A DNA stretch of 64,000 bases from assembly GCA_043818675.1 (NCBI GenBank), contig JBDRFR010000069.1, positions 14,877 to 78,876 on the forward strand, given 5' to 3'. The notes beneath the pieces are model-generated. The model worked only from the letters and a program-made list of their open reading frames with translations. It was not told where the DNA came from and did no database searches. The stretch is from Nanobdellota archaeon (GTDB lineage Archaea > Nanobdellota > Nanobdellia > Woesearchaeales > DATDXC01). Position numbers and translations under genes: made by a program. Positions 7,226 to 53,588 of the stretch are shown piece by piece. Within the stretch, counting starts at the first letter, position 1. Each line of letters opens with the position of its first letter.

Positions 7226-7535
7226 GGAAATTAAAATGAGTAGTAGGCCCGTCTATCCTACTGACCGTATCAAAGGCACGGGGTTCGTCAGGACCTGTTC
7301 CTCAATGAGTAATAAGATTATGGGGCATATAAAATTTTTGGAAAAAATGGATGGATTTAATGTAAACTGTTTAAAGAAAATTATGCCACGATTCTGGGAA
7401 AAAAATGTCTCTATGATGGGAACTAAAATAGGTCTCGATATTGGGAAAAGTTTTGGATTTTTTGAATTGGTTTTAGAGTTTATTAAGGTTGGATTAAGTT
7501 TATTTTGCATAAAAGAGGTTGATTATGGCTGCTAG
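7218..7535 (+). CDS. hypothetical small protein (105 aa) overlapping the start of the giant gene
   Basis: ORF with a GGTGAGG Shine-Dalgarno-like motif upstream. No motifs. It overlaps the giant ORF start by 17 nt. Confidence 0.2.
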   Translation: MVKEIKMSSRPVYPTDRIKGTGFVRTCSSMSNKIMGHIKFLEKMDGFNVNCLKKIMPRFWEKNVSMMGTKIGLDIGKSFGFFELVLEFIKVGLSLFCIKEVDYGC

Positions 7536-10500
7536 TTGGTTGAATAAAGCAGGGAAAAGTAAGGTTTTGGTAGCTTTAGCTTTGTTTTGCTTACTGTTAG
7601 GGATGTTTGGCGTAGGGTTATATAATGTAGGAGCCAGTCAAGACGAACTACTAATTGAAAGAGAGAACTTGATTAATGAGTTAGGGAATTATTCATATTT
7701 ACTAAACACATCACTTAAGATTGATCATATATTTGTTGAGAATTATTCTTGTTCTTCAGTTGGATATCATACTGTTAAGGTTTTGACAGAAGGAGTGCAT
7801 GATCAATTATTTAAGTTTGGTGATGTTAATGCGTCAGCGCATAATCTGGCAACGTATTCATCCAGTATAACCAATAACACGATAATATGGTATCATTTCA
7901 ATAATGATTCTTCTGTATATGAGAATTATGGAACTGAAGAGTTAACTGCAGAAGATAGTATGGTTTTATTATTCCACTTTAACAATGATTCTAGTGTTGG
8001 TGAGAATGATACGCATGTTTATGATTTTTCAGGGAATGGGAATAATGGAACTGTGACAGGTGCTGTTTATAATTCTAGTGGGAAGTTGAATGGAGCGTTT
8101 GAGTTTGATGGTGATGGGGATTATGTTGGAACAAATTTTAATACAGATATCCAGAACTTTACTGTTTCTGTTTGGGCTAAAAGTCTGTCTGCTCCAACAA
8201 CAGGGGGTGTATATACAGCGGTTCTAGGAAGGGAGGAGAATTTTATTATTTACTGGGATGCTACAAGTGGCACATTTGATGCTACTGTTGCTTATAGGAA
8301 TTCAGCGGTTGGATGGACAGCTTCTGATTTTGGTCCTGTAAGTGCGAATGTATGGTATCATATTGTTGGGACTTACAATGGAACTACTTTGATTACTTAT
8401 AGAGATGGTGTTGAAATAGACACTTCTACATTTGGAGTTCCTCAGAGTACTTCTGATATGTTAGCAATAGGGGATTCTAGGGTTGGAGCAGGAAATTATT
8501 TCAACGGCTCAATAGACGAAGTAGCAATCTGGAACAGAAGCTTATCCGCAGCAGAAATAAAAGGCATTTACATGAGAGGGCTACCTGCACATGTTTATGA
8601 TTACTCACAATATAATAATCATATAAAAGCCAACAAAACTGATCCGTTTGAGCCAACCTTTACAGCAGCAGGTAAATATAATGGAGCGTTGGAGTTCTCA
8701 AAAGATGATTATCTAATTAAGGACAATTTCACATTAGTCGGCGGAAACGGAACAATATCATTCTGGTTCAAGCTCAAAAATAATTATGATTCAGCCAAAG
8801 ATAAACATATGATACCTTGGGAATACAGGGAAGATGATACCCCAAATAAAATGGTCATCAGGTTTGACGCAGGGACTGGCCAGTTAAGGCTTATAACATA
8901 TCCAGGTTCAGATGTACTGACAGATTCAGATGCAACTTCTTGGACAGCAGGTGTCTGGCATCATGTTGCATGGGTACATAACACTACCCATACTGTGATG
9001 TATGTAGATAATGTGTTACAGTCTGATGTTGACACAGCAACAGTTTGGTGGAATGACTTTGCAACAGAAAATAGTACGCTGTATATTGGAGCCGAATATT
9101 ATAGTGGAAAAATACAAAGTTACTTCAACGGAACAATAGACGAATTTATGTTATTTAACAGAAGCTTATCAGCAGCTGAAATATCAGACCTTTATGGTGG
9201 AAAAGCAATAACAGGATTGACTATATGGGATGATTCTGATAACAAGAAAGTATACGCAAATTACACTAAATTCTATGCAGACTATAATGACTCAAGCGCT
9301 AAGACAGCCATATACGGCGGCGGAAGATGGTGCGAGTTTGCGTTTAATAAGACAAACCTAGACTGGAGCATATATACCTACATCAATATGACCTTTAACC
9401 CCAACACATTAAGATATGAATTGATAGCCGATGGCGGTTATTTCAATAACCAGACAGAAAAACACATAGATGGTATGCCAGCTGGACAGTATTATTATAA
9501 TATATCCTGCTATGATGAGACTGGAGTTTATCAGAATGTTTCAGTTGTTGATTTTGTTAATGTTTCTGAATATGATACAGGTTTAGGTATTACGACAAGT
9601 GTTACTGCGCCTGATGTTAACCAAAATGTTATTTTTTATGCAAACTATTCAAGAAATGATGTTTGGGATGTTGATAATTGGGTTTACGGTAATGAGATTG
9701 GGAGGGTTGTGTGGAATAGTAGTTCTATAGGTAATGAAAGATATTATGATGCTATCCCGGCAGTGTTTGTTGATTTTGACAACGATGGTAAAAAAGATGA
9801 ATTTGTTATCTCTGATGGTAACTCAGGGACAATATATCCTTTTTATTCAAACGGTTCACAAATGGAATGGACAAACACACAACAAGGATATGACTCTGCA
9901 GAAATATCTGTTGGAGATTTGGATAGGGATGGTTATGAAAATGAGATAGCAGTTGGAGATTGGCTGAGCGGAACAAGTGATGTGATAATAATTAATGAGA
10001 CAGGTGCAACAGTCTGGTCAGCTGTGAGTAATGGACAGCCAATATATGCTATTGAAATTGATGATTTAGAAAATGACGGATCTCCAGAAGTTGTATTCGC
10101 TAAGACTACAGTCTTAAGCGTCTATAATATGACTGGCTCAGAAATTTGGAATTATACTCTGCCAAATTATGCTTTGGAAATAAGAATGGCGGATGTTGTG
10201 GGGAATGAAAATAAAGAGATTATTGTAGCTACTGCTTATGGGGATAAATTGATGGTATTTAATTCCTCCGGTACTAATTTATGGAACTATACTAATGGAA
10301 ATGATCCGATTTCGATTGCATTCGCAGATATTGACCATGATGGTGTTGATAACATTATTACAGGGATGAGGACCGGAAACCAAGTATATGCAATGAATGG
10401 TTCAGGATCTATGCTTTGGGGAGGGAGTAGTCTTAGCGGAGTTGCCGGACAGATAAATGAGCTTGCCACTATGGATTTGGATGGGGATGGGTATGAAGAT

Positions 10501-13500
10501 GACATTGTGGTCGGAGACCAAGCTGCTGTTAAAGGATATGATAACGATTCAACCAATCTATGGAATTTTAATTTACCCTCGGATGATATATCCTCAATCT
10601 CCGTAGGAGACATCGATAGCGATGGTGATAAGGAGATTATTGCAGGGGGCCTTACAGACGGTACAGTATGGGTACTTAATAGAACTGGCAGCTTAGAATT
10701 TAGCTATAAAATTGGAACCGGCCATATTGGAAATACCTTCTATGCAAGCTCTCCATCAACTGATATTTCTGATGTTAATAATGATGGAATAAATGATATA
10801 GGTGTTGGTATCTATCTAACTAGTGATGATAGTTATGGATATATCTTCCAGGACGTCTCCTGCACAATAAAATTCAACGATTCTGCAACTATTTATAACA
10901 TGACATGGGATTACGTTACTGACAAATGGAATTACTCAAGAACGTTTTCGAATAATGTTGTCTATGCATATAATGTAACCTGCAGTAAAGGTGGCTATGT
11001 AACTCAAATCCAGGAATCAACAGTTGATTTAACACAGACCTTAATAATATGGGACGACTCTAACTCAAAAGTAACATATGCAAATTACACCAAATTTTAT
11101 GCAAATTACACCAAATCAAACGGAACCCCATTGACAGGCAGCGGTGAATGGTGCGAGTTTGCATTCAATAAAACAGGCCTTAACTGGAGCTTTTATACCG
11201 CCTATAACATGAGCTATAATCCAACTACAAAATTATACGAGATAATTGCTGATGGCGGCTATATTAAAAATAACACAGAATCGCATATTGGCGGGATGCC
11301 TGTTGGCAATTATAGCTTTAATATTTCCTGCTATGGCGGCAAAAACTTAACAGCAACAGACACAGTAAATGTTGCTAAGTATGATACAGGTTTATCTTTA
11401 ACACAGTCAAATGTTCATGCTGATATTAACACAGATGTTGAGTTCTTTGCTAATTACACAAGAGATACTGTATGGAATGTGGACAACTGGTTCAGAGATT
11501 CAGGAGAAATTGGCAGAGTTATATGGAATAGCAGTGATGTTGGAAACAGTCTTGTTGCACTAAGACCAGCTGACTTATCTAATGACGGATATCTGTCTGA
11601 TATAGTTACAGTAAATGACTACAAGATTATTGCACACTATCAAAACGGATCAGTAAGGTGGACTTTTTCAACTGGAGTTATCCAACAGGCAGGATCCTTA
11701 AACATTGTCAATCTGGATAACGACGGATTTAAAGATGATATAATTACAAAATTCTCTTATAACATATTTGTCCTTAATAAGACTGGTGATCAACTAAACA
11801 AAACAACTGTTGCAGACGGCGGTTGGGGAATTGGAGTTGCTGGTGATGCAAATAATGACGGAATAGAAGATGAGTTAGTAGTATCAGGCGTAAATTCTAA
11901 TCCGGCAATATTATACAATATATCTAACAGCGGACTTTCTGTTGTTAAACAATGGAATTTTTCAGTACCAGATGATATGAGGGAAGTAATATTCGGAGAT
12001 TTTGACTCAGACGGTTTGGATGATGATTTTGCAATTAGTGGAGTTGATTCAGGAAAAGGAACTTATGTTTATAAATGGAACGGGACAAATTTATTTAATG
12101 TAACTTATGGTGGACTTGCTATTGCCAAAGCTGATATTGACCATGATGGTTTTGAAGATGATATAGTGATTGCAGAAAACGGCAATTATCTTGTTTATTC
12201 TTTTAATGGAAGCTATAATACAAAATACACAAGCACAGATGAAGCAATGGTATACAATACAGATCCAATATCAGTATCCGCAGAGATGATTGTACTGGAT
12301 TTGGATTCAGACGGATTTAATGATGACATCATACTGGGAGATAGAGGCGGAGCAGCTGGACCTGGAATTGTCTGGGCATTTGACAACAATAGTATTGGAT
12401 TGTGGAATATCACATTACCTGCAAACGGAGATGATGATTACATCTATTCCATGGTCGTTGATGATTTTAATAACGATGGTAAACAAGAATTGATCTTTTC
12501 CAGTGAAGAGTTTGATAAAGTTTATGTTGCCAATCTGTCAGGATATGTACTTTGGGACCAGATCATTGGACAAGGAGATATCTCAGTGATTAAAGGAAAA
12601 TCTCCTGGCATCATAAGTATTGACATAAATAAAGATGGAATTTCTGATTTTGCGACCGCTTCCGCAAATGGTTTTGTCCATGTTCTGCAGGACGTATCCT
12701 GCACAATCCAATATGAATCAGAAGGTGGAGAGATTAACAGGACTGGTCAGAATTGGGAAAATGGTTTAGTTGCTCTATATCATTTTAATAATGAGTCTGC
12801 ATATGGCGAAACAACTGTTGGAGTTAATAATGTAACGTATGACTTTGCACCAGGTCACTGTTATGATAACGAAACAGAAATACTAACTAATGAAGGCTGG
12901 AAATTATTTTCAAAATTAAATAAAACTGAGCAAGTAGCAACATTAAATCAGGAAACAAAAGAATTGGAATGGCAGCATCCAATGGAATATCAAGAGTTTG
13001 ATTATGACAATGATATGTATAAGATTATATTGGAGGATGGATCAGATTTACTTGTTTCAGAAAAACATAGGGTTTATGGAAAATCAGTAAGCATCATCGT
13101 GATGAGTGAAATCTTCAAAGATGATCTTATTTTCTCTGACCTGGAAAGTCAGGACAAAATGCCCCACATGAACTCTTTTGAGATGGCTCAAATCCCCTTT
13201 GAGGTTCTTAAGGTGATTGATGGTGACAATATCCATTTCAGAAATTTGGATAATTTTTCTACTCAAAGCTTTGAAGAGAACAGGGTCTTTTCTCTTAATC
13301 TTGATCAGAGCCTTATCAATCTTGGAAATGTCAATATTCATAATTCATCCAGCCACTTTTTTAGTTCTTCGGGAGTCATTGCCTTGCCTTTAGCTGGGTC
13401 TTTAGATATTTTCTTTAACTTTTCTATGAACTCAGGCTTCATAGGAAATTCATCTAATGGATGCCAGTCAATAGATTCACAAAACTGCTCATCTTCCCTA

Positions 13501-16500
13501 GTTAGTTTCCTTGATACACGAAATTCTTCAAATATTCTTCGCTTGTTCAATTCCTCTCTAGCTGCTTCAGACCAGTTTATCCATGGAAATGCTTCAATTC
13601 TTGCCTTAAAGGATTTGTCTACAGGATATATTATACTAGCCATTTATAATTCACCCCTTGCCCTTAATTTTTCTAATGCTTCTAATTTCTTAAGCACACC
13701 CTGTTTTGCAACTTCAGACCAATTAATGTCAGGATGCTTGTCTAACTTTGCCTTAAAATCATCAGGTACTGATATAGTAAACCTTTCCATTTTTGATGCC
13801 TCCTGGATGATACAAGATAATAAAATTTTGGGTTCATCCAACAATTGTATTACTAAACACAATTGTGTTTATAAATCTTTTGATAATTTCAAGTTGATGC
13901 CTATAACTGATGCGTATGGGCTAATCAATTCAGGAAAACAGGTTTATTTCCTGGATGGTTTTAATAATGAGGTTAAAGTTAAGTCGATTGTTAAAGAAAA
14001 GTACAATGGCAGAATATATGATGTCGATGTAAAAAATGATGTTGTTTTGGTAAGAAGGATTGATAGGAATAATCGCACAAATAATTATGATAAAAAAGCC
14101 ACGCAAGCAGGAAAAAATTCATGCCACAATTCTGGGAAATATTGTTATGATAAAAGGACTAAGGAAAACTTCTTTTCTGAAAATGAGGATGGTTTGGGTA
14201 TATTGAGTGAGAGGGGTTATGAAACTAATTATTATGGTATATGGTCTGGGAATAGCAATAACGGAACTATTTATGGTGCTACAGTTGATATGACTGGTGG
14301 GAAGTGGAATGGGAGTTTGGAGTTTGATGGGGCGGGGGATTATGTTGATGCTGGAGATACATTTGATATGGGAACAAATGATCTGTCATTATCTGTATGG
14401 TTTAAAACATCTGATAGTGGTTCAAAAATTAAAACAATTATTTCAAAATCTTATGCATGGGATACAGGTGCATATAATTTGATTATTACTGCTGGTAATA
14501 ATCTAAGACTTCATGCTGAGAATAATACTGGTCAGGGTGAAGTAGATATAATAAGTCCTCTAACTTATACTGATGGACAATGGCATCATGCAGTAGGTAT
14601 TTTTGATAGAGATAAAAATGCAATATTATATGTTGATGGATCTGAAGTTGGTTCAACAACAATGGCAAATATTCTTAATCAGGATCTGGATACTACCTAT
14701 TCATTTAGAATTGGAATGTCACATTGGAATAGTTGGCCCAGACCTTTCAACGGCTCAATAGACGAAGTTGCAATTTGGAACAGAAGTCTTTCTGAATCTG
14801 AAGTCTGGGACTTGTACATGTCGTCAGCACCAAAATATAACATGACATGGGACTATACAAGAAAGAAATGGAACCATACAAAACAGTTCACTTCATACGG
14901 TAATTATACTTACGGAATAACATGCGAAAAAGGCGGCTACACAACCCAAAGAAGCTCAAGTTATGTTGATCTAACCCAATCATTAACAATATGGGATGAT
15001 TCTGATTCAAAAACAGCCTATGCAAATTACACCAAATTTTATGCAAATTACATAAGATCAAACGGAACAGCAATGAACGGAAACTATTGGTGCGAGTTTA
15101 AGTTCAATAAGACAGGCAGATGGACAAAACCAGTCAATATGAGCTTTAATCCAGTAAGCTTACAATATGAAATAATTGCTGATGGCGGATATATTCAGAA
15201 TTCAACTGAAACGCATATTGACGGGATGCCTACTGGAAATTACAGTTACAATATCTCCTGTTATGGTGGTGAATATAAATCACTAACAGATACTGTAAAT
15301 ATAGCAAAATATGATACTGCACTTGCTTTAACCCAAACAAACATCCATCCAAATACCTATTCAGATGTTGAGTTCTTTGCTAATTACACAAGGGCTACTG
15401 TATGGGATGTAGACAACTGGTGGTGGGATACAACTGAGATTGGGAGGGTGGTTTGGAATACAAGTGCTCTTGGAGGGAGTTCACATACTGTTGATTTCTT
15501 TGATTGTTTGAATAGTGGAAAGAAAAATTGCCTTGCGACCACAGAATATTCTGATATCTGGATGTTTTATCCAAATGGAACACAGATTACAGCATCTGGA
15601 ACTGCCTCAAATCCAGGAGGAGATTTATTAGATGCTAATGTTTTTGACGGAGATGGAGATGGTTATGAAAATGAGGTTCTTATTGTTGGAGATAATAATC
15701 AGGTTTTAGTTGTTAACGAGACAAGAAATACTGTGTATACCTATACTGCTGGAGGAGATATTTTTTCTGTTGTTGGAGCTGATTTAGATAACGATGGAGT
15801 CAAAGATGATTTTGTTATTGGTGCTTATACTGGGTCTGTTTATCAGGTCATGGCATTTAATACTTCTGATGGAGTTAATTGGGTGAATTTTTGGAACGGA
15901 ACTGTTGGAGGAGTTATTCAGGAAATGGTTATTGGTGACTTTGATAGAGATGGAAGGGAGATTGATGTTGCTGCTACAGGGACTTCGAATGGAAATGTTA
16001 CTGTTTTTGTTGGGGATAATGGAACATTGATATTTAGTACTGTTGACCTTGGGGCATTATCTTCACTTACAGTGTCTGATTTGAATCATGATAATTACAA
16101 TGATGAGATAATCGTGGGGGAGACGGGTGCCACTAGGGTTCTTGCGTTTAGGTGGAATGGGACATGGGGAGCAGAAATGCAAGATACAGACAATGATACT
16201 AATGGTTGGCTTTGGTCAAACACTCTTCCAACATACAGTATTACTGAAATTGATACTTTTGATGCAGATTTAGATGGTTACAAAGATGAGATTATTTTTG
16301 AAGATGGAGGCAGTTCATCAAACTCAAAAATTTGGGCAGTGGATGAAGAGGGCAACTACTTGTGGAATTTTACATGGGGGAACACAATTGATGTTTCATA
16401 TAGTCTTAATGTTGCTGATGTGAATAACGATGGAAAGGATGAGATAATTTTTGGACCTAGGAATGCTGCTACATTGTATGTTTTGAATATCTCTGGAGAT

Positions 16501-19500
16501 TTATTGTGGAGTTATCCTCTTAATCAGGGTTGGATTGGTAATGCTTATGGAACTTCTCCAGGGATAGATATTTCAGATTTGAATAATGATGGTATAAATG
16601 ATATTGTAGTTTCAACTAATACTGTGGGTTATAAATATATTTTCCAAGACGCTAAATGCTCAATCCAATACGAATCAGAAGGCGGGGAGATTAACAGAAC
16701 AGGTCAGAATTGGGAAAATGGTTTAGTTGCTTTATTTCATTTTAATAATGAAAGTGCATATGGCGAAAACAGCAGCTATATTTATGATTTCTCAGGTAAT
16801 GATAACAATGGAAGTTGTACAGGTACAACATGCCCAACCTTTGATACAACTAGTGGAAAGTGGAATGGTAGTTTTGAGTTTGATGGCGTGGATGATTATG
16901 TTGCAATGTCTCAGGATGATAGTCTAAATTTTTCAGGAGATAGTGAGATTACCATTTCCTTTTGGGCTAAACTTGTATCAGCAGATAATAGGCATGCTGT
17001 TATTGGGGCGTGGGATGGTGAGTCTGGTTCTACTTCTGCTTATCTCTATATGGACAATTCTGGAGCTAATGGAATTATTATCAAGAATACAATAGGAGGT
17101 GATACTGGAATTAGAACATCAAGCACATCTTTTAATTTAAACACTTGGTACCACATAGTTTATACTTTTAATGGTGTCTTAGAGACAGTCTATCAAGATG
17201 GCACTCAAATTGATACAAATGATATAAGTGGAACCATGCGTAATAATGGTGAGACAGGTCCTTGGGTAGGTCATGCAATGAATGATGGAACAACTCCAGT
17301 ATATTTCAACGGCTCAATCGATGAAATCGCAATCTGGAACAGATCATTATCCGCATCAGAAGTTTGGGATTTGTATATGTCATCAGCACCAAAATATAAC
17401 ATGACATGGGACTATACAAGAAAGAAATGGAACCATACAAAACAGTTCACTTCATACGGTAATTATACTTACGGAATAACTTGCGAGAAAGGCGGATATA
17501 CAACTCAAAGAAGCTCAAGCTATGTTGATCTGACTCAGTCATTAACTATATGGGATGATTCCGATTCAAAAACAGTCTACGCAAATTACACCAAATTTTA
17601 TGCAAATTACAAAAGATCAAACGGAACCGCATTGAACGGTAATTATTGGTGCGAGTTTAAGTTCAATAAAACAGGTATATGGACAAAACCAATCAACATG
17701 AGCTTTAATCCGGTTTCCCTACAGTATGAGGTAATAGCAGATGGTGGATATATCCAAAACTCAACTGAATATCACATTGACGGTATGCCAAACGGTTATT
17801 ATGGGTATAATATAACATGTTACGGTGGTGATTATAAATCATTAACAGATATGGTCAATGTTTCTTTATATAATACAACTTTGGGAGTCAGCAGGAATAA
17901 TCTTGCGCCAGAGGTGAACGTTGTTACAACATTTTATGCAAACTATACAAGAAATGATGTATGGGATGTTGATAACTGGAAATTGGGACATGAGATTGGG
18001 AGGGTTGTTTGGAATACTAGTTGTCCAACATGCGGCAGTGTTTCTGCTATACCTGAATTTGTAGACTTCAATGAAGACGGTAAGAAAAGTGAATTATTCA
18101 TTCTTGCTGATGGTTTCCCTTATGCTATTTCAAGTAATGGTTCTAAGATCTGGACAAGTTCAACAGAGAGATATGTTCCTAGCCAAGCAGTAGCTTTTGA
18201 TGGAAATGGAGATGGATATGATAATTATGTTGTTGCAGTTGAGGATGTAAATTCTGGTTCAGGTATACGTGTGTATAACAGTACAGGGAATATCATTTGG
18301 GAATGCGGCTTTCCCGGAGACTTTATGTCTGTTGTTGCAACTGACTTAGATAATGATGGAAAGAAAGATGATTTTGTTGTAATTGATACATATACTCCTG
18401 TGGGTAATGTTTCCGCATATACTACTACTAACGGGCAAACATGGGTGATTAATTGGAGCCATATATTTCCAGCGACTAATACCGCAGATGGATCTATTAA
18501 GATAGGAGATTTAGACAACGATGGAAAAAAAGATGATTTTGCAATTGCAGGTGTGGAATATACGATTGCCCTAAATGAAACTGGAGGCGTTATATGGAAC
18601 ACAACTGACTTAGTTGATAGAGTAAATGGTGTTGGAATTGGAGATTTTGACCATGATGGTTATGAAGATGATGTGATTGTAGGGAATAGGGGATATTTAT
18701 ACATCTTCACTTTTAATGGAACTTATGGAGTTACATATACTACAAATGATGCAATTGCATCTTCTTCCTACCCTAACAGTGGAACACAATCAACTGTTAC
18801 TAGTATAGTTGTATTTGATTTGAATAATAATGGATTTAAAGATTCATTTGCTTTATCAGACATAACATATGATTCCATAGGTGTTTTTGACAACAATACT
18901 AATAATGTTTGGTTCCACAATACAAATGATTTTGGTGATGGAAGCATAGATGTAAATACTGTACGGGCAAGTGATTTTAATAATGATGGCAAAGATGAAC
19001 TGATGTTTGGTGCAGATAACGGGCTTATATATATTTTTAACAGCACAGGTTCTCTTTTGTGGAAATATGTTTTGATAGATCACGTGGGGGAGTCTTCTAG
19101 AGAGGATGCCGTTAAATCAGGCGACATCAATAATGATGGAATCTCTGATTTTGTAGCTGTCACTGTGAATTCTTACACTTACATATTCCAAGACGTATCC
19201 TGTTTCATAAGATTCAACGATTCAACATCAGTCTACAACATGACCTGGAACATAACTTTAGACAAATGGCAGTACCAAAGGACATTTCCTGACGTATCAA
19301 GATATAAATACAACATCACCTGCTCAAAAGGCGGATACATTACACAGTTTACAAACACTTCTTTTGCAACAGAAGACGGAAACCCAAGATGGAGTTCAAA
19401 TAAGACTAACCTAACAAGAAATTCACCATATTTAGCAGATGTCCATTTCAACATTACATTAAATGACATCAATCCAGCATCATACATATTCAGCTGGTAT

Positions 19501-22500
19501 AATGGGACTGCATGGGAGAATAATTCCCCTGTAAGTTATGATGATAATACAGAAATCTCTGTTACAAAAACATTAAACATAAGAAACGAATCTGCTGCTA
19601 TCAGCTGGACATTCTACTTTAATGATACTGTTGGAAATAATAATCAAACAGATGTATGGAGCATTACAGTTGATAATATACTGCCAAGGATAGATTATTC
19701 AGGTGGAACTAACGCAGATGGCGAAAACATAGCTAAAAATTATATTTATGTCAATGTATCAGTTACAGAAGAAAATGTTGATAAGGTATGGTTTAACCTG
19801 TACAATGATGATTATTCTTTGAACAAAAGCATGATACATGGTGAGTTACCAAATTATAGACCTGAGACTTATATTAATATGACCGGCAATGTACTTTTAA
19901 TGCATTTTAATAATGACAGTTCTGTTAGAGAGAATTCAACACATGTTTATGATTGGTCAGGTATGGGGAATAACGGGACTGTTTATTTTAATTCATATCC
20001 AAACCTAACAAACCCTAAGCTTGGTTTAGGAGCATTTTCATTTGACGGAACTGATGACTTTATCAATATATCTGACGTTCCATCATTAAGGTTAACTTCG
20101 ACAGGTACAATATCTATGTGGATCAAACAAAGCGGTGCAGACCAAGATCCATACGCTACATATGTAGGAAAAACCAGGGGTGGTGTGACAGCTACAATTG
20201 CATATATTCTTTACCATAGAGATTCAGAAGGTACAATTAGGGGAACTATCTGTAATGATGCTAACTGTGACTTGATCCAAACACAGGAATTTGCTCAATC
20301 AGATGTTGATTGGCATCATCTGGCATTTACATGGGACAGCGTAAACTTATCTTTATATAAAGACGGCATTTTGTTTAATAAGACCCCTCAAACCCGAAGC
20401 GTAGATAATGATGCAGGAGATCATCTCAAGATTGGCGGATATGGTTTCAATGATGTGGGAAGTGATGATTTCAGCGGTTTAATGGATGAGGTTGCAATCT
20501 GGAACAGAAGCTTAAGCGCAGATGAAATAAGAGACATATACGAGATCCAGAAATCTGCATATTACCATAACTTTACAGTATCAGACGGAACATATCATTA
20601 CAATGTTACAGTCAATGATACTTCTGGTAATCAAAATGTTACAGCAACAAGAAGTGTTTCACTGGATCCAACTTATCCTAAAGTTTCATTTGTCTCTCCA
20701 ACTTATAGTGATGGTAAGTTTACTAAGAATACTTCTATTCCAATAAATGTAACAATAACAGAAGCTAATCTTGACAGGATAATATATGAATGGGATGGTG
20801 TTAATGAAACAGACTTCAAGCTGGATGCGCCAATAACTGAAGTAAACTTTACAGTCTCAAGCTTAGAAACTTTAACTGTAAGTAACGGTTCCCATAAGAT
20901 TGATCTGTTTAATGATAGTTCTCTTGTGTTGGCTATGAGTTTTGATAATTTGTCTGCTCTTGGAGAGAATGATACTCATGTGTTTGATTGGAGTGGGGGT
21001 GGGAATAATGGGGCTGTTTATGGAGGAACTGACGCTGATTCTGGTTTCACAACGAGCGGGAAATATTCAGGAGGACAGATGTTTGATGGGGAGTGGGATT
21101 ATGTTTTTGTTAATGATTCAGATGTATTCAGTGGAAATTTGGCGATATCTTTATGGATAAATGCAAAACAATGGAGTACAGATGGAACACTGGTAAGAAA
21201 ACTAGATGAGTGGCAATTAGATATTAATGATGGTACTGTGGTTAGATTTTGTGATACTGCGGCATGTAGCGATATTGCTACTTCTGAATTGAGTTTAGGT
21301 AAATGGTATCATGTTGTGGGAATTAGAAATAGTTCTGGAGTAGAGTTATTTGTAGATGGGATAAGTCAAGGATATGTTGCAGACCCAATTGCTTCAAGAA
21401 CAACTAGTCATGTTTATATTGGTGCAGAGGAAGGAGCGTTTGACTTTTTCAACGGCTCAATAGACGAAGTAAGAATCTACAATCGTTCTCTTTCTGCCTC
21501 AGAAGTTGCAATGCTTTACAAATCTAATCTAAGAAAATACGACGTAAACAAATATAATTTATTTTTCAACCAATCAGGAAATTTCAGTTTAACCTACAAC
21601 ATTAATCAAAACACAACAATCAACCTAAGAAAAAACAGCACCAGAAACTACTGGCTGGATATCAATAAGCAAAGTTTAGCTGATGATTCCTACGCTTACA
21701 GAGTATTTACAAAAGACGACATGCAAAACTGGAACAGCACAGAGCAAAGAACAGTAAATGTTGACCTGGAAAGCAGGATTGTATTAGGCGATGACTCAAA
21801 CAACAAAAAAGTTTATGCTAACTACACAAGATTCTATGCAAACTTTACAGATGTTGAAAACAATACAATAAACGGTTCAGGGTATTATTGTGAGTTTGCT
21901 TATAATAAAACAAACCTGGCATGGAACAGATATACAGTAACAAACATGAGCTATAATCCAATTACAACACAGTATGAAATCATAGCAGATGGTGGATATA
22001 TACAAAATGCAACAGAGAGTCACATTGATGGAATACCTGTAGGACTTTATTATTATAATATAACATGCAAAGACTCAAGCGGGGGCTACACAGCAATCTC
22101 AACTGTTGACCTTGTTAATGTTTCTGAATATGACACAAACATAGCAGTAACCCAATCAAACATCCATCCAGATACAAACGCAAATATCGAATTCTTTGCA
22201 AACTATACAAGGGATACTATGTGGGATGTGGATAACTGGTGGTGGGATACTAAAGAAATCGGAAGGATTGTGTGGAATAGTAGTGAATATGGTGCGCTTT
22301 CAGATACTGTGTATTTTGTTAAGGCTATGGACTTAGATAATGATGGAGAAATGGATGAAATTGTTATAGGGGGTATACCCACCATGGAAGCTTTTAGTTC
22401 AAATGGAAGCTGGATTTGGTCAAAAGCCGTTCATAATTATGATACACATTTTGAAGTATGGGATCTAGATAACGATGGCTATAAAAATGAAATCTTAACA

Positions 22501-25500
22501 GGAACAAATGGGGGCGATGTAAAAATTATTAATGAATCTAGTGCAAATGTTGCAGTATGGAATAGTTATAGTTATGGGAGTAATGGGGGGACTATGATAT
22601 TAGGAGATCTAGATAATGATGGATTTAAAGATGATTTTGTAGCTGTAATAGATACAGGCAGCGTTAGAAAAATTCTTGCTTGGAATACCTCAGATTATGT
22701 AACCTGGGTCAATTTTTGGAATTATAGCCTTCCTCATGACATTTATATAGATCAATTAATAGTATCTGACTTGGATGGTGATGGGGATGATGATATCGCA
22801 GGCTCGGTCACTGCAAATGATCCAAGATCGTATACGTTTGCCTTAGTAGGACACAATGGATCCGTACTTTGGAATACCACATCCAATTATGACCAACTTT
22901 GTTATTCATTGATTGCTTTAGATATGGATCATGATGGACTTAAAGATGATATAATTACCGGTTGCACAGGAGATATACATAATTTTAGTTTAAATGGAAC
23001 TTATGGAGCAACATATACTCCTTCGTTATTTAATAATTCACCAACTGGAAATATTTTAGAAATAGCAGCGATTGATTTGGACAATGATGGATATGAAGAT
23101 GAGATTATTGTAGGTGATACAGGAGTTTATAACACTGGTCCAGGATATGTAAGAGCTTTTAATAAAAATGGAATTGAAGAATGGAATTTTGAATTGCCTC
23201 CCACAGGTATTGCTGATGGGGACGATATTGCATCGCTGGTTGTGGGAGATGTGAATAGTGATGGGAAAAAAGAAATAGTGTTTGGTAATGAACAGCTTGA
23301 TACAATTTATGTTTTAAACAAATCAGGATCATTATTGTGGGAATATAAAATTGGATTAGGTAATATCGGATCATCAAGCGATGAATCACCAGGTATTGAT
23401 CTGACTGATATCAACAACGATGGTATTCTTGATATTGTAGCTAGTTCACTAACAGGTTATGCACACGTTCTTCAAGATACAACATGTACAATTCAATACG
23501 AATCAGAAGGCGGAGAGATAAATAAAACAGGAACTAATTGGGATGATGGACTTGTAATGTTAATGCACTTTAATAATGAATCAGCATACGGTGAAACAAC
23601 AGCCGGAATTAATAATGTAACATATGACTTTTCAGGTAATGGCAATAACGGAACAATATATGGTGCAACGTTTAATGCAACCGGTGGTAAATGGAACGGA
23701 AGCTTTGAGTTTGATGGGATTGATGATTATATTGAATTAACAGATATGAACATTAATGATGAATTCACAGTTTCAATGTGGTTCAAAGCTAAAAAGTTAC
23801 AAGACGGCGCTACTTTAATTGGTGATTTGGACAATATTGGAGGTAATGAGGGTTGGTCCATAAGATACTTAACTTCACTAGGTAATGAATTGCACTTCAG
23901 TTTTGATGGAACTACATGTGGATGGACCAATTACGACCTTACTGGGATTAATCCGGATAATGACAACACTTGGCATTTTATTTCTGTTGTCTTTACAAAC
24001 AATACTGTCTCTTGGTTTTATGATGGAACTACTGAAGTTGATAGTCACAGTCAGCAATGTGTAGTTGAAGATTCTAATGAGAATATCAAAATTGGCGTCG
24101 CTTCCAGAGATACTTTCCCAATAAGTGCAAGCGGACACTTCAACGGCACAATCGATGAAGTAGCAATCTGGAACAGATCATTATCAGCTGCAGAAGTTTG
24201 GGACTTATACATGTCATCAGCACCCAAATACAACATGACATGGGACTATACAAGAAAGAAATGGAACCAAACAAAACAGATAACGACATACGGCAACTGG
24301 ACTTATGGCATAACATGCGAGAAAGGTGGATATGTAACCCAAAGAAGCTCAGGTTATATTGACATGACTCAATATTTGACAATATGGGATGATTCTGATT
24401 CAAAAACAGTTTATGCTAATTACACTAAGTTTTATGCTAACTACACAAGATCGAATGGAACTGCATTGAACGGTAACTATTGGTGTGAATTTAACTTTAA
24501 TAAAACTGGAATTTGGACAAATCCAGTCAATATGAGCTTTAATCCAACAACAACACAGTATGAAATAATCGCTGACGGCGGATACATACAGAATTCAACA
24601 AAAACGCATATTGACGGGATGCCGGTTGGAAATTACAGTTATAATATAACATGTTATGGTGGGGATTATAAGTCTCTAACTGACACAGTTAATATTGCTG
24701 AGTATGACACAGTTTTATCAATACTTAATGATACAGATAAAACTGTTGGAGAAAAGATAAAATTCTATGCTAACTATTCAAGAGTTGACCCATACAAAGT
24801 AACTAACTGGAAATTAGGTAAAGAGATTGGGAGGATTGTTTGGACTGATAATTTAACAACTGACACAGAATTGATATCTATTACGTCTTATGATATGGAT
24901 AAAGATGGAAAAAGAGATGAACTTGCAGCTGCGGTAAGGGATCAAAATACCGGAGAATTAGCCTATTTTTATCCAAACGGTACATATAAATGGATCTATT
25001 CAGTTTCCTGGGATTTTACAGAGAGCATATTTGCAGGAGATTTAAACGATGATGGTTACTATAACGAGATATATTATCCAATGGTGGGTGAACCCGCAAT
25101 ATTTAATGAATCAGGAGACCAGGTGTGGACAGGCAGCATCACTTACCCGGCAATGCAGTTTGAGGGAGCCTTACTTCTGGATATTGACGGAGACGGACAA
25201 AAAGATGATCTGGTTGTGGTAAATGCTACTGGTGTGTTTGCATATAATACATCTGATGGGATTACCTGGCATAATTTATGGAACTATTCTCACCCAATCA
25301 GTCTTGGCTTAAACAATCTGTGGGATGCTGCTTCAGGAGATCTGGATAATGATGGTAGAGATGATATTCTGTTGGGAACATATCTCCCTCCCAATTTATA
25401 TGTGATCAATTCCACCGGTAGTCAAATGTGGAATTATTCCTACATACAATACGGACTGGCAGTTGAATTGATAGATCTTGACAGTGACGGCAAAAAAGAT

Positions 25501-28500
25501 GAAGTTATCCTGGGTAGTCTATATCAAATTATCCATGGTATAAATGGGTCTGGCGGACATCTGTGGAACATATCTGGCGGAAATCTCAGGCATTATGAAC
25601 TTAATGTTCTTGACCTGGATGATGACGGATTTGAAAATGATTTTGTTGTAGGTGATGCCAATGGAAATGTCACAGCATATAATGCTTCTCTGACAAACCA
25701 TGACATGATGTGGTCAATTGATCTAAACGGGGTAGGGGCTAATGATATCTATTCAGTTTCAAATGCAGATATAAATAATGATGGAATAAAAGAAATTCTA
25801 GTGGGTGGAGAAGATGCAATTTTATGGGTTTTAGATAAGTCAGACGGAAGTGTCCTGTGGGATTATACTGTCGGAACAGGAGACATTGGATCAGGGGCTG
25901 GAAAATCCAGAATAACAACCACAGATATAAACAATGATGGAATAAACGAGATTATTGTGGCATCACGAACAAACGCACAAATCCACACCTTCCAGGATGT
26001 AAACTGCATCATAGAAATCAGCGACGGAACATCAGCTGACATGAATTATAACTCAACCTCCAGAAAATGGGAATACAATAAAACATTCATTATTGCAGCT
26101 GACTACGAATATAATGTAACCTGCACAAAGGGAGGATATACTGAACAGGTACAAAGCTCTACTTTATCAGTTGCAAGCTTAAGGACATATCATCAGCCGT
26201 CAGCTGTTTATTCAAACTATACAAGGTTTGTCGCTAATTTCACTGAAGGCACTGGCAAATGCAGGATGAAATACAATAAGACAGGCATATGGAGCAGCTG
26301 GCATAACATGAGCTGGAATGGGACGATAAACGCGTTTGAGCTTGAAGCTGACAATGGGTATAGAAGAGGGCATATGCGCTCAATGCCGGCCGGAACTTAT
26401 GACTATTATATTGACTGCAATAACTCTTTAGGCCAGGCTGTAAATGCAACAGATTCGATAACTGTAAATGATTATGATACAAACCTATCAATATCAAACA
26501 CTAATAATAATCCAGTTATCGACCAACCTATCATTTTCTATGCTAACTATTCAAGAGTTGATCCATACAAAGTAGATAACTGGAAATTAGGAAATGAGAT
26601 TGGACAGGTTGTATGGAATACAAGTGATATTGGCACAAATGCAAATGCGATCGCAGCCATTGACCTGAACAATGATGGAAAGAAAAATGAGTTAATAATA
26701 GTAATGGACAGTGATATTACTGGCTTGTATGCAAATGGCAGTGAGAAGTTCAGCCAGACTTCTGGCATAGGTAATTCAATCTTAGATATAGCTGTTGGTG
26801 ATTTTGACAATGATGGTTATGAAAATGATTTTGCAATTGTAAGAGGCGCAAGCACCCTCGAGGTGTTTAATGAAACAGGCCAGGAAGTATGGGAAAGCGG
26901 CGATTACGGATCTACGCCTGCAATACCGGCTATAGGAGACTTTGATGGAGATGGCATCAAGAATGATTTCTTTATGATGGATGGCGGAAGTGTTTTTGTT
27001 TTTAACTCAACAGAAGGAAAGGTTTGGAGCGAGAGATGCAGCATTACGCATGGTGCCAACGTTTATGCTGGATATGATGCTATAACAACTAGAATTTATG
27101 ATTCATCTAAAGATGATATAGTTTTTGTTTCCAGTGAGAATAGTGCAACACCTGGCATTTGGGCGATTAATACATCATCTATTGGAACATGCAAACAATA
27201 TTATAATGGTTCAGGGAATTTATTTAGATCACTTGATGTTCTGGATATTGACCATGATGGAATTGAAAATGAATTTGTTGTAGGTGAAAATGGAGATGTA
27301 CTTGTATTTAATTTAAGCTTAGATATAATCCTTAGTGATTCTACACCTGATGATAATATTTGGGAGATCAGAAAAATTGACCTGGATAATGATGGATTTA
27401 AGGATGATTTTGTCGCTTCAGAAGATAATCCTCCAAGAATCAGGGCGTATGATAATAATTCTGATTTGAACTGGACATTTAATACTGGCGAATCTGCAGG
27501 AGTGTCTATCTTTTCGATGGAAATAGCTGATGTTAATAATGATGGAATAGAGGATATTTTATTTGGAACAAGCACTGGTATTGTTTATGCTGTTAATATT
27601 AGTGGAAACTTAATGTATAAATATGATATTCAATTAGGAACAATCGGAAATGACAACTCAAGAGCTTCATCAACAGACATCTCAGACATAAACAACGACG
27701 GAATAAATGATGTAGCAGTTGCATCCTTTGATGGCTACGCACACATCCTTCAGGATTCATCCTGCACTATAAAATTCACAGACGGATCATCATACAACAT
27801 GACCTGGAACATAAGTAAAGACAAATGGCAGGCAAACAAATCATTCAGATTAGCAGGGACATACAGCTACAATATTACATGTAATAAAGGCGGATACATA
27901 TCACAAAACCTAACTGCAAGCATTACAGCTGCAAAACAAGGTTCATTCTGCGATTGGGGAAGCTTAGCTACAACATGCCATATTAATACAAGCATAACTG
28001 TAAAGAATAACTACCAATTAAACGCATCCAACATAATAATCCATGAGCTTGGAAACCTATACAATAATTCAGGCATAAGCTTCATAATAAATCTAACCGG
28101 AAACCTAACAATAAAAAGCAGCGGAACAATCAATTTATCCGCAGCAAACTGCGCAAGCGGAACTTGCACAAACGGCGGAAACCTGACAATTATTGCATCC
28201 ACATTCAACCTAAGCAGGGGTTCATTTATTTATTCCAATGGCGGCTCTTTAACATCTGATGGAACCAAGGGTGGTAGTGGAGGAATAATAAATATCACAG
28301 CCAGATCATTCTATTTTGACGGAAATATAACATTAGATGGTGGAGATAATGCAGGAACATACAGTACTGGAGATGGAGGCATAGGTGGCACCATGGTTAT
28401 AGATGTTAATACCAACCTTAACATAGGTGGTAATCTGCTTGGAAAAGGCGGAACCGGAAGATCAAACATCTGCGCTGCAAATAGCGGCAGCAGGGGTAAT

Positions 28501-31500
28501 GGTGGTAAACTGATAATTAATGAAAACAATCTTAACCTGACAGTAAACGGAATTATTGACTTGCCTCCTGGAGAAAGAGGATATTGTGCAAATGGCACAT
28601 TTGGTGCAACTGACCTAAACATAAATACCTTAACTGTAAGCCAAAATGGGCAGCTTAAGATTGGAGGAACAATCAACTCATCAACTATAACCATAAGCGG
28701 TATTTTAGGACCAAAAGAAAGTTTGGGCGGAGACGGCAGGGTAAGCAGAAATAACGCTAGTGAACTGACAATCCTAAGCAATGTTTTAAATTTAACTTCA
28801 GGTGGAATAATTACAGGCAAAGGCCAAAGTGAAACAAACAACCTTGACTATTATTCAGGAACAGGTGCCACAATAAACATTTCAGTTGCAACCTTCTATT
28901 TTGATGGAAATATATCGATCGAAGGCGGAGAAGACTCAAGCGGAAATACTAACGGCGGAGGAGATGCAGGAATTTTGTATTTGGATGTGAATAGTAATTT
29001 GATTGTTAATGGAAACATTTTAGCAGATGGCGGAGTTGGAAGACCAAATGTCTGCGACAGTACAACTACAGGACATAGGGGGAGTGGTGGAACAGTCATC
29101 ATTAATGAGCCAAACCATAACATTAGTTTAGTAGGTCAGATTATTTCAAATAGGGGCACTACTGGACTTTGCGATGACGGCTCCGGCGGAACAATAAATA
29201 TCACAGCATCAGTATTAAACATAACAAACAACATTGAAGCAAAAGGAAACATCTCAGGAAATATTAACCTAAAAGCAGTCAGATTATACATTAACTCAAC
29301 ATTAAACGTAACCTCGGAAACAAATGACCAAAACGGAACAATAAGGATAACTTTCAAAGACAACTTCAACGCAACATATTCAAAGATTGAACCGGTTACA
29401 TACTTAGAAAGAAACACAACAGATGGAATGGTTTCTTTCTTACAATCATTTAACAGAAGATTAAACTCTACAATCCCGTATGAAAACGCAATAACTATAG
29501 CTTACAACAAAATAAACATTAACTCCACGAAATACAAAGACTTAAACAAGTCTGCCGATATAAAACTCTACAGCGCATTCGTCGGCGATATCAGGTTATT
29601 AAAAGACGGATTATTATGCACCTCCTGCAATCTAAAGGATTACTCGTTAGGCACTGCATACTTCAACGTAACATCGTTTACCAACTATTCGATAATCGGC
29701 AACACTACTTTAGTCTTATTTGATTCAGAGTATGATGTTCACCCGTTAAGCAATAACCCGATTATTTTCCAAAATGAAGTGGCCATATTCTACGCAAACT
29801 ATACAAGAAACAACGATAGTATTATTCTAACCGATGCAACTTGCGTTATTTACTTTAACGACACACAATCATGGACAGCTATGAGTTATAAGCCTGATAA
29901 ACAGTTGTTCTCGTATAACAGGACCTTTACAGCTGGCGGCAACTACACATGGAACACCAGCTGCGGCAGATCAGACTATTTAACCCAGTCAACAGAAGAT
30001 AACATATCAATCTCCGCTAACACCCCTCCTGTAATAAACTCTGTAAATATTACTATCAACAACAGTCTTTCAACTTTAGCCTATACTAACTCAACCTTAA
30101 ACTGCATGTTTAATATTACCGATATGGACGAAGGAGAACTTGTAAGAGCGAATATCACCTGGTTTCGGAATTTAGGTGATGGTTATATCCCCTGGACAAT
30201 GGACAACGAAGACGAGATTACCATAACACACAATATCTCGATGAACACAACATCAGGCGACATTGAGCCAGGCAAAACCAACCACAGCGACAGCTGGATC
30301 TGCCAGGTTACAGCATACGACTTATATAACGGCACCTCAATAACAAACTCCTCACCGTTGACAATCCAAAACTACAGCACTGTTTTAGTAATCTTTGACG
30401 AAGAAACAGACATTGAACAGCACAGGCGCTCAAACACAAGCACAATCTACAAGTTCCAGAACACCTCATTTTATGCTAATTACACCTTAAACCATCAGAT
30501 CATAAATCCTGCAATCTGCAGTATCTATTTCAACGATTCAGTAAGCATCAACATGACATACAAAGACACCCTATATTATTATAACAGAACTTTTACAAAA
30601 GGCGGCAATTTCACATTCAATATTACGTGTAAACGGTTCAATTACACAACAAAGACCAACTTTAGCTGGCTATGGATAACCTACAACTCATCACTAAGCA
30701 TCTTTGACCAGGAATCAGACGAAGAGACCAACCTATTAAGCAATAATGAGATCTACCAAAACGAAAACAGCTTTTTCTACGCAAATTATACAAGGGACGA
30801 TGATAACGCAACGATTACACAAGGCAATTGCACTATCTCTTTTGATGACAAAAAAGCCAACATGAGCTACAACACAAGTTTGCAGCTATTCACATACAAT
30901 AGGAGTTTTGCAGTCAGGGGCACTTATACTTGGTCAATAAATTGCACGACTAAAGGCTACGAGCAGGAGAACAAAACTTCCAGTATAACGGTTCTCTCTG
31001 CCGAGTTTGAGCATATTTATATTACACCCGAGATAGCATACAGCTCTGACAATCTGACTTGCATAAACACTACTGTAACGAATCAGGGCTCGGAAAATTA
31101 TACATTGGTCTATGAGTGGTTTAATGACGACGTTAGGATTGCAATTCTGGATTTAGCTTCCGATGGATCGGTAACACGTAACAACCAGGGCCAGGGAGCT
31201 GCATCTAATGCAATCGACAACAACCTGGCAACAGTTTGGCAGACAGACGAATTATCACTTGGCTGGATAAAGTTCACATTAGATAATACAAGAACCATCG
31301 GCAAATTAGACTATACGTTTAACGGTTCTGGCAATAGGGATAATTTCAACATATCATATTCAACTGACGATTCCACCTACATTACATTATACAGTTCACT
31401 GTCCGACCCAGGAAACGAGGTTACAATAACAAAAACCTTCGACCCTGTAAACATGAGGTATATCAGAATTGATTTCAGGAGCGGCTCGACCCAGGAATTT

Positions 31501-34500
31501 GGCGGATTGGCAGAATTCAATGTCTACCCGACAAACATACTATACAGCTCTTACACAACAAAAGGCGACAGTATCCATTGTACGATAACAGCCATGTTAG
31601 ACGATATTAATGCAACCACGTACACAACAAAATCCAGGTACAGGATTTTTACTAATCAAAGCGATTTCATAGGCGGAACATTAGTTAACACCTCTATTAC
31701 TCACCAGCCCGGCAATATCACGCTATACCCTAACTCAACAGGCAACTATTCAAACACAACAGGATACTACATTTCACCTTCCATTGATTTCCAAAGATTA
31801 TCACCCTCCATCTCGACGATAAGCTGGAACGGTTCAGATACAGGCATCAGTATCCAGACAAGGGTTTCAGCTGACAACAGCACCTGGTCAGAATGGCAAG
31901 GGCCGCAATTGACAAACAGCCCAAATATTTTGGCGCTTATGCATTTCAATGACGCTAACACCACAGTGAACAACGACCTGCCATTGTCAGGCAATTTCAG
32001 TTATAAACAGGCCAAATGGAACAATGGATTATTGATAAATCACACAAGCTATATTAGTTACAATACAAGCTTGTTGAACTATTCAACAGGCACGATCGCT
32101 TTCTGGCTAAAGCCTCTTGCCAATTTACAAGAAGGTTACCTGTTCGACACAGCATACAATGTAAGCATCAACCGAATCTCCTTATACCTTGAAAACTCTG
32201 TTTTATTCTTTAGGATCAGGGACAGTAATGACCGCGACCATATTGTTAACACTACGGTTGACTTCCAGGAAAATGTATGGCAGCATTTAGCAGTAACCTG
32301 GAACTTAACTAACATGTCAATTTACGTAAACAATACTTTGTTCACATCAAACATCAGGTCAAATGAGATCAAAAATGATAGTAACACTCTTCTTTTAGAA
32401 AGATTTGAAGCAGGATCAAAAATACAGAATAATGGCGGCATTTTACAGGGCAGCCTGGTTGATGGTAAATACAGTAATGGGTTTTTATCAGCAAATACAG
32501 GAGACGTTATCAATTATTCCACAACAAACCTTAACATCACAAAAGGCACTATTGAATTCTGGCTGAAACTTCAAAACTCTTTAGACTCAAAAACTTACTA
32601 TTTGTTTGACACTGCGTATAATGACAGTATTGACAGGTTATCAATCTATTTAGAAAATTCAAAACTTAATTTCCTGATAAGGGATAAAGATGACCGCGAC
32701 CATTTGATTAACGCAAGCGTTAATTTCCAGGATGACATTTGGTATTCAATAGCTGCTGCATGGAACCAAACTAATATGAGCTTATACATCAATAATAGTT
32801 ATCAGGCAGGTGATTATAGAAGCACTGAAGTAGCTAACGATTCTGATACCTTACTGATAGAAAGGTTTGAATCAATCAATAAGATAGACACTAACGGCGG
32901 CAGTTTTAAAGGCAGCCTTACCGATGGCAAACATGATAAAGGCTTCTTATCAGCTATAAGCGGAGACGTAATCAATTATTCCACAACAAACCTTAACATC
33001 ACAAAAGGCACTATTGAGTTCTGGCTAAAACTTCAAAACACCTTAGATTCAAAAACTTACTATTTATTTGATACTGCTTATAATGACAGTATTGAAAGGC
33101 TGTCAATCTACCTGGAAAACTCAAAACTTAATTTCCTGATAAGGGACAAGGACGACCGTGACCATTTGATCAACGTAAGTGCAGATTTCCAGGCAGGTGT
33201 TTGGTATTCAATAGCTGCTGCATGGAACCAGACAAACATGAGCTTATACATAAATAACAGCTATCAGGCAGGCGATTATAAAAGTACTGAGATAAAAAAT
33301 GACACAAGCACATTGCTCTTAGAAAGGTTTGAATCAATAGCTAAAATAACAGCTAATAACGGTTATGTTTCAAGCGGCGTAAATCTCACCCAGGGCAGGC
33401 ACAGTAAAGGAATGATCACCGACAGACCAGGCGAATTTGTAAATTATTCTAGTGATTATTTCAACCGCACCAAAGGCACTATCGAATTCTGGATTAAACC
33501 TGTTTGGCCAGGAACTGCTGATAAAACTGATTATTTCTTTGACCAGGGCAGCGGTTCACAAGCAAACAGGATGTTTATTTCAAAAGGCAGTGATCCGGCA
33601 AGCGAATTAAGCATATCAAACTCAAGCATAGTATTTGCCATTTTTGACGGTGCAGGAACATCTCATTATGTAAGTTCTGATATTAGTTCATGGCAATCTT
33701 CGGAATGGCACTCAGTTGCAGCAGTTTACAATTTCACTGGATCATCTTCCTACATGGCTTTATATGTTGACAACGTTTTGCAGGACAACACCCCGACAAA
33801 TCCAGGCGCCTTCACACTCAGCGCAAAATCCATTTTATACATTGGTTCAAACAGGCTAAAGGATCATTATTCAAATGCCACAATTGACTCTTTAAGGATT
33901 TCAAACAACCCAAGGTCAAACTTCAGCTATATTTACGCTGACGATACTATTCCGATTAGTAATAAAGCAGCCTTACAGCATATTGGCAATAGTTATAATT
34001 TAAGTTATCCAGCTAATGCAACAATTGACTCCTTTAGAATATCAAACATACAAAGAACAGGCTTTAGCTATATCTACGCAGATACAATACCATTGCTTAA
34101 CAAAGCAGCCTTATTGCATATTGGCAATAGTTACAATCTAAGTTATCCAGCTAATGCAACTATTGACTCTTTAAGGATATCAAACACACAAAGAACAGAC
34201 TTTAGCTATATTTACCCAGGTGACACACTTCCGATGTCTTCCAAAGCAAAAGAGTTTTTCATAGGCACAAACTACACAAAACACCAGCAGATAAACTCCA
34301 CTATTGATGAGTTTGTAATATACAACAGTATTCAAGATATAGGCGACATTTATCAGACATCGCATACAGCTTTCCAGGGCACTGTTCCCACGCCGCACCT
34401 TAGGTTTTTACAGTACAAGATTAACTTCCAAACAAACTTCACTAACCAAACACCAATCCTTGAAAAGCTGACTATTCAGCAGGATGATTTCCCTATCATT

Positions 34501-43815: not shown

Positions 43816-43857
43816 TTTTCATAAAATATTTAAAGAGCAAAAACCCATTAATGTCAA

Positions 43858-53460: not shown

Positions 53461-53588
53461 TTTATTCCTCCATAATTACGCTTTCATTTACATTTGCGCA
53501 TAACAAAAATTATGCATGTTCAGCATAAAACTATATTCTTGTCTTCGTTTTTACCCTCATCAATTAAGTTGTGTAGGCATAACAAAAA

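Follow-up and report, generated by a model that had tools for sequence, protein, structure and literature searches.

A composite LamG-tail, YA and YB module at three sites of a 36-kb DPANN surface-protein gene, probably homogenised by old intragenic gene conversion

The 64,000-nt stretch of Nanobdellota contig JBDRFR010000069.1 analyzed here (hereafter the window) carries a giant open reading frame (ORF) for a SPEARE-like DPANN surface protein. Within this 36,297-nt ORF, three copies of one composite module (c1, c2 and c3) lie in one common reading frame. Each consists of the end of a LamG domain followed by two domains that we call YA and YB, and the three appear to lie in as many mega-repeats, which are old and have diverged elsewhere. 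We consider it likely that the module was homogenised among these mega-repeats by old intragenic gene conversion and was then held under strong purifying selection. The original prediction, made from the sequence alone, described three segments of about 570 nt that were about 90% identical and had arisen by recent duplication or conversion. The segments are real and in frame, and they had been placed correctly to within 1–2 nt; their identity and age needed revision.

Repeat detection and BLASTN delimited the copies (Table 1), and the pairings among c1, c2 and c3 are the top three self-matches of the whole giant gene (BLASTN, E values from 0 to 1e-153). A 35-mer that is invariant in the tract has three exact occurrences in the window, against 0 expected. 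Over approximately 574 nt, pairwise nucleotide identity is 85.0% for c1–c2, 81.8% for c1–c3 and 80.3% for c2–c3. The earlier figure of about 90% therefore fails as a pairwise value. It stands only as the mean column identity of c1 to c3, which is 91%, or locally for c1–c2, which reach 93% over 14832-15132. Similarly, identical runs of more than 60 nt had been ascribed to all three copies. This is correct for c1 and c2, which alone share an exact run of 98 nt (14824-14921 = 17383-17480), but not for c3, whose longest exact run with either of the others is 38 nt. The copies are dispersed and not head-to-tail, with a spacing of 2,559 nt (853 codons) from c1 to c2 and 6,834 nt (2278 codons) from c2 to c3.

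Each copy starts with the final ~22 residues of a LamG domain (FNGSIDEVAIWNRSLS.SEVWDLY); the linker MSSAPKY, a single YA and a single YB follow. Hidden Markov models (HMMs) built from the giant protein itself recognized 11 LamG domains, 11 full YA domains (~44 residues) and 7 full YB domains (~112 residues), the last carrying a 'YANYTKFYANY' motif. By the same models, LamG ends at aa 2431, 3284 and 5562, so the first ~70 nt of each copy are LamG C-terminus. In a Pfam search, Laminin_G_3 (PF13385) covered aa 2270-2429, corresponding to positions 1-150 of the 151 in the model, with E = 6e-135 for the whole piece. The domain anatomy thus bears out the earlier view that the tract straddles the junction between a LamG end and a 'YANY' domain.

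YA–YB had no Pfam match. An AlphaFold (AF2) model of YA–YB built from 28 sequences is all-beta, with a predicted local distance difference test score (pLDDT) of 90.8, and a Foldseek comparison of this model with the PDB returned only generic Ig-like, macroglobulin, S-layer and CARDB sandwiches, none at E <= 1e-3. On this modeling, YA is predicted to be a beta unit of ~45 residues and YB an Ig-like sandwich of ~110 residues. Each copy also has 12–13 N-glycosylation sequons and three conserved cysteines.

The module is rare. Among 1.84 billion representative proteins, an exhaustive profile search detected it in just 190, and the module-bearing proteins among those inspected are large, repeat-rich and of surface type. 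A word-indexed protein search with copy 1 gave two matches, the better of them at 61%. Three distant DPANN loci carrying the module were recovered from genome contigs and two distant loci from metagenome contigs; the genome loci encoding it belong to DPANN archaeal metagenome-assembled genomes (MAGs). The 35-mer of the tract had 0 matches in viral contigs.

The edges of the tract are sharp. We made a sliding comparison of the three units together with 350 residues upstream and 550 residues downstream. Amino acid identity is 15–35% in the LamG body, rises to 90–100% at FNGS (aa 2410) and drops to ~30% after YDT (aa 2600). Inside the tract it is 84–90% between copies, and the best outside match of the tract, among the 1.84 billion representative proteins, is 61–68%. 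As had been proposed, the surroundings are far more diverged than the copies, on both sides. The three upstream LamG bodies are mutually 20–24% identical, which is within the range for any LamG pair in the gene (13–31%). A BLAST comparison with 54 LamG domains, taken from the giant protein and its relatives, placed none of these bodies among the top five matches of another.

Other paralogues of the module in the giant protein are 36–62% identical, and their dS (synonymous substitutions per synonymous site) against c1 to c3 ranges from 1.3 to saturated. The units at aa 536 and aa 4644 (50–62%; Table 1) show how paralogues appear when they are not homogenised. The tails of other LamG domains in the gene (8495-8571 and 20465-20541) contain patches of 42–77 nt with 81–95% nucleotide identity to the tails of c1 to c3 by BLASTN.

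Within the tract, the pair of copies that is most similar changes twice, giving 5′, middle and 3′ sub-tracts with three different closest pairs (Table 1). The non-closest pairs in each segment have a higher or saturated dS. Partners switch at about 14832 and about 15133, and the two-breakpoint maximum chi-square of 41.0 was reached in 0 of 500 permutations. The mosaic recurs when only codons synonymous across c1, c2 and c3 are considered (chi2 19.8, p = 5e-4), which argues against selection as its cause. Partner switching of this kind points to several exchanges between the copies, since one duplication history cannot give it. The idea of recombination or concerted evolution at this junction is therefore supported by the sharp boundaries, by the discordant LamG relationships and by the significant three-segment mosaic.

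The copies differ from each other at 85–111 positions per pair, and 68–72% of these differences are at third codon positions. For the whole tract, dN (nonsynonymous substitutions per nonsynonymous site) is 0.06–0.09, dS is 0.57–1.35 (NG86, LWL85 and YN00) and dN/dS is about 0.07–0.08. Maximum-likelihood estimates of dS for the pairs c1–c3 and c2–c3 ran to about 6, and we set them aside as unstable. Identity at four-fold sites is 0.62, 0.52 and 0.46, compared with 0.32 at saturation, and identical residues use the same codon at a frequency of 0.58–0.68, compared with 0.43 expected. By these measures, the three copies are linked at DNA level by a more recent common ancestry than links them to the other paralogues. 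They are not, however, recent in the sense of the original prediction. The dS values, the third-position bias and the low dN/dS all indicate an old event after which purifying selection has kept much of the 80–85% identity that remains.

A comparable case was found in a related giant gene of a Candidatus Pacearchaeota MAG (JAGLLG010000009.1, 10103-13100; hereafter L001), where tandem units of LamG plus spacer recur with a period of about 1 kb. The LamG bodies of L001 are 12–27% identical, and the LamG tail, the spacer and the lead-in of the next LamG are 81–85% identical. Two of the spacers share an exact run of 246 nt. An exact repeat of this length beside unalignable LamG bodies implies unequal age, with exchange confined to the inter-LamG part and starting in the LamG tail; on sequence comparison, this restriction is demonstrated in L001. 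The two genes are alike in having diverged LamG bodies and homogenised spacers, with the 5′ boundary in the same place within the LamG tail. They differ in that the L001 units are tandem, their spacer is another domain and not YA–YB, and at least one L001 exchange is truly recent. Most other relatives with several module copies have within-protein identities of 29–77%, and in one orthologous pair the identity between positional orthologues (81%) exceeds that between paralogues (54%). Homogenisation is therefore lineage-specific and not universal.

In the mechanism that we propose, non-reciprocal homologous recombination (intragenic gene conversion) between paralogous units would even out the module. 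Tracts would begin in the LamG C-terminal motif FNGxIDE..WNRSLS, which is common to all LamG tails even in DNA and, being conserved in this way across the gene, could seed recombination. They would stop at the conserved '..YDT' end of YB. Because exchange would start and resolve in conserved stretches, the LamG bodies, which cannot be aligned, would not be affected. Three or more exchanges with differing partners would produce the observed succession along the tract of c2=c3, then c1=c2, then c1=c3. These exchanges would be old (dS about 0.4–1.3), and later change would have been tolerated almost solely at synonymous sites (dN/dS about 0.08). That DNA identity is still 80–85% would be due to strong purifying selection on the module since then.

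Table 1. Coordinates of the giant gene, the three module copies, their sub-tracts and flanks, and other paralogous or control units in the window.
Feature	Coordinates (nt)	Strand	Description
Giant ORF	7519..43815	+	12,098 aa (12,098 codons), 37% G+C, SPEARE-like DPANN surface protein
Direct copies c1, c2, c3	14745-15320, 17304-17880, 24139-24715	+	Repeat detection and BLASTN
Tract copy c1	14746..15318	+	aa 2410-2600: LamG tail FNGSIDEVAIWNRSLSESEVWDLY, linker MSSAPKY, YA aa 2440-2483, YB aa 2489-2598
Tract copy c2	17305..17877	+	aa 3263-3453
Tract copy c3	24139..24711	+	aa 5541-5731
5′ sub-tract (LamG tail and linker)	c1 14746..14831, c2 17305-17390, c3 24139-24224	+	c2–c3 closest: 83% nt, dS 0.67; c1 the odd one out
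Middle sub-tract	c1 14832..15132, c2 17391-17691	+	c1–c2 closest: 93% nt, dS 0.38; holds the 98-nt run
3′ sub-tract	c1 15133..15318, c3 24526-24711	+	c1–c3 closest: 84% nt, dS 0.76; c2 at synonymous saturation with both
LamG body before c1	14326..14745	+	20% aa identity to c2 and c3 bodies; best matches are LamG of another species (L001)
LamG body before c2	16882..17304	+	20-24% aa identity to the other two; matches the LamG at aa 197 best
LamG body before c3	23713..24138	+	20-24% aa identity to the other two; best matches are LamG of other proteins
Paralogous unit, LamG tail directly followed by YB	9124..9579	+	aa 536-687; 59-62% aa identity to c1 to c3
Diverged YA–YB paralogue	10882..11388	+	aa 1122-1290; preceded by a propeller end, not LamG; 57-61% aa identity to c1 to c3; local patch of 79-84% nt identity to c1/c2
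Non-homogenised paralogous unit (LamG tail, diverged YA-like stretch, YB)	21448..22137	+	aa 4644-4873; 50-51% aa identity to c1 to c3; dS 1.7-2.4 where calculable, else undefined
Tandem LamG-type pair (internal control)	32419..33342	+	462-nt period, 82% nt, 83% aa, dS about 1.0, dN 0.10

Several points weigh against gene conversion as the explanation. The protein, genome, metagenome and viral collections held no close relative (best match 61%) in which paralogues could be seen to cluster by genome and not by position. Since the comparison is of three sequences only and lacks an outgroup orthologue, lineage- and segment-specific rate shifts could in principle account for the mosaic, which is unlikely at synonymous sites. 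The synonymous-site excess is modest outside the sub-tracts. Finally, conserved residues of the three LamG bodies use the same codon in 40 of 69 cases (0.58), compared with 281 of 597 (0.47) for other LamG pairs; the difference is not significant (p = 0.098), and body and tract may formally be equally old.

A common age is what a one-time duplication of whole LamG + YA + YB units would have left, if it took place at dS about 1 and if the module was then conserved while the LamG bodies hyper-diverged under diversifying selection for new ligands. The dN/dS of the tract (0.07–0.08) is in keeping with such a history, but we think it rather unlikely. It cannot yield a partner-switching mosaic at synonymous sites, and the LamG bodies are not mutual nearest relatives, having better matches in other species. 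The gene also provides an internal control: a tandem LamG-type pair of equal dS (about 1.0; Table 1) keeps 83% amino acid identity, and LamG bodies of that age are therefore not expected at 20%. In L001, where LamG bodies of 12% identity stand next to the 246-nt exact repeat, equal age is ruled out.

Protein-level constraint might instead have produced the similarity alone, through convergence or ancient conservation and with no younger shared DNA ancestry. The concentration of 68–72% of the differences at third positions would fit this, as would the synonymous saturation of c2–c3 and c1–c2 in the 3′ segment. This possibility is nonetheless very unlikely, and the synonymous-site excess largely refutes it, given a four-fold-site identity of 0.46–0.62 against 0.32 in saturated sequences. 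Constraint also leaves the 98-nt exact run common to c1 and c2 unaccounted for, as well as the much lower identity of the other module paralogues in the giant protein (36–62%) and of the within-protein copies in relatives (29–77%).

The original prediction had named the copies as the most likely sites of assembly error. Such an error could be a repeat that was collapsed or duplicated in assembly, or a chimeric join made at the repeat. The gene is highly repetitive, and the 98-nt exact run of c1 and c2 could confuse an assembly graph built with a small k. However, duplication artefacts would be about 100% identical, and these copies have 85–111 mostly synonymous differences, unique flanks around all three of c1, c2 and c3 and an intact 36-kb frame. 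Copies with 15–20% private differences in frame cannot be artefacts, which leaves only a mis-join across the 98-nt run. We judge an assembly origin to be highly improbable. In practical terms, 14.8-17.5 kb is the one place where the assembly merits long-read checking.

Programmed variation, either by a diversity-generating retroelement (template repeat plus variable repeat) or by phase or length variation of cassettes through frequent recombination, is scarcely credible here, even though this is a surface protein of a host-dependent archaeon with in-frame repeats 853 and 2278 codons apart, because the scanned window ORFs of at least 150 aa yielded neither a reverse transcriptase nor a recombinase (28311-28841 and 43854-44348, both on the minus strand, were outside the scan), mismatches are not adenine-specific (24–33% are at A, for an A content of 39%), the copies are too dispersed and their identity is too low for high-frequency slippage, and dS values of 0.6–1.3 indicate long independent histories. 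We rejected the retroelement on the first two of these grounds, and tandem-repeat slippage was rejected because Tandem Repeats Finder (TRF) found no tandem array at the site of c1 to c3. The earlier thought that the repeats permit in-frame expansion or contraction of the protein is possible on paper but unsupported, as the copies are dispersed and c1 and c2 are the only pair with a long exact run. Targets of diversity-generating retroelements do occur in DPANN archaea, and they resemble this gene in having stretches of ~80–90% identity repeated in connection with surface proteins. Besides lacking the two signatures above, the 570-nt copies differ from such targets in being under purifying selection and not hypervariable.

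If the module was homogenised by gene conversion, the gene offers a view of how a 36-kb archaeal gene is assembled and maintained. Ancient and mutually diverse LamG domains would be set against a rare constant module, a DPANN-specific scaffold that is kept near-constant at three sites by copy exchange and strong purifying selection. The module is likely to be functionally important, and the LamG bodies are likely the variable, ligand-specific parts of a host-attachment protein. We infer that the bodies are the diverse ligand-binding parts and that tail, YA and YB together form a constant, heavily N-glycosylated scaffold or spacer. A broader and quite speculative extension, which we put forward tentatively, is that DPANN giant surface proteins are arrays of variable LamG bodies in a constant frame. 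Conversion restricted by boundaries would have its anchors in the first and last strands of the LamG fold, which are conserved; inter-LamG modules would thereby stay uniform, and LamG bodies diverse or exchangeable. The pattern was met independently twice, here with dispersed YA–YB and in the Pacearchaeota gene with another spacer, a tandem arrangement and the 246-nt exact run. If the idea is true, constant-frame arrays would be a recombination-based design for evolving host recognition.

The giant protein has a hydrophobic N-terminal anchor (aa 14-37) and a transmembrane (TM) helix at aa ~11615-11637, both located from hydrophobic windows. Its ectodomain of ~11,600 aa contains the 11 LamG domains plus FG-GAP, CARDB and NPCBM_assoc, and has 582 N-X-S/T sequons compared with 224 expected. 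The C terminus consists of a HerA/DUF87-type P-loop ATPase and a coiled coil (nt ~42496-43812; Pfam DUF87/HerA_C/TrwB at aa ~11,680-11,800). This ATPase has 571 homologues at E <= 1e-10, of which those listed are 47–68% identical, and the homologues with a source name are mostly from DPANN archaea (Woese-, Pace-, Nano- and Aenigmarchaeota). A nearby Pelota/eRF1-like gene also points to an archaeon. Two other repeats were seen in the giant gene, a 138-nt unit present 2.5 times at 82% identity (33874-34219) and a pair with a 606-nt period at 65% identity (36125-37274). An antisense ORF of 176 aa inside the gene (28311-28841, minus strand) is probably spurious.

On the minus strand at 56097-62446, a PKD-domain surface protein of 1,342 aa (58418-62446) has a 4-nt overlap with a DUF87/HerA ATPase of 774 aa (56097-58421). 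This pair looks like a split version of the ectodomain–ATPase fusion in the giant gene. Just upstream of the giant gene, a HEPN-domain protein (5201-5704) overlaps a nucleotidyltransferase (5701-6303) in a toxin–antitoxin-like module. Several ORFs flanking the giant gene (751, 310, 353, 294 and 246-286 aa; 2878-5133, 6293-7225, 43858-45770 and 51786-55228) had no Pfam match, and the window contained no tRNAs and no Rfam match at the gathering threshold.

Intragenic concerted evolution is well known from large microbial adhesins, including those with tandem Rib/alpha-C repeats, the G5-E repeats of SasG/Aap and other 'periscope' repeat proteins. The giant gene is like them in that in-frame paralogous segments of one surface gene resemble each other more than their surroundings do, which we ascribe to recombination. 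It differs in that its copies are dispersed (2.6 and 6.8 kb apart) and 80–85% identical, compared with typically >95%, and in that the tract takes in two domains and part of a third. A new mechanism is not called for: repeat homogenisation in surface proteins is an ordinary process, found here in an unusual gene.

Our literature search on intragenic conversion in DPANN giant proteins found nothing specific. The closest system in layout is that of the SPEARE giant surface proteins of Nanohaloarchaeota, whose layout is set out in PMC10266531 with reference to Hamm et al. 2019; the passages of PMC10266531 that describe these proteins do not describe intragenic homogenisation. As described there, SPEARE proteins have in common with the giant protein a signal or anchor at the N terminus, a huge Ig-like/LamG ectodomain, a single TM helix and, in the cytoplasm, a coiled coil together with a VirB4/HerA-like P-loop ATPase. 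The lineage differs: for both ATPase and module, the nearest relatives of the giant protein are in Woese-, Pace- and Nanoarchaeota MAGs. The two also differ in size: the protein encoded here has 12,098 aa, compared with 9,409 aa for the protein that PMC10266531 gives as the largest in cultivated archaea.

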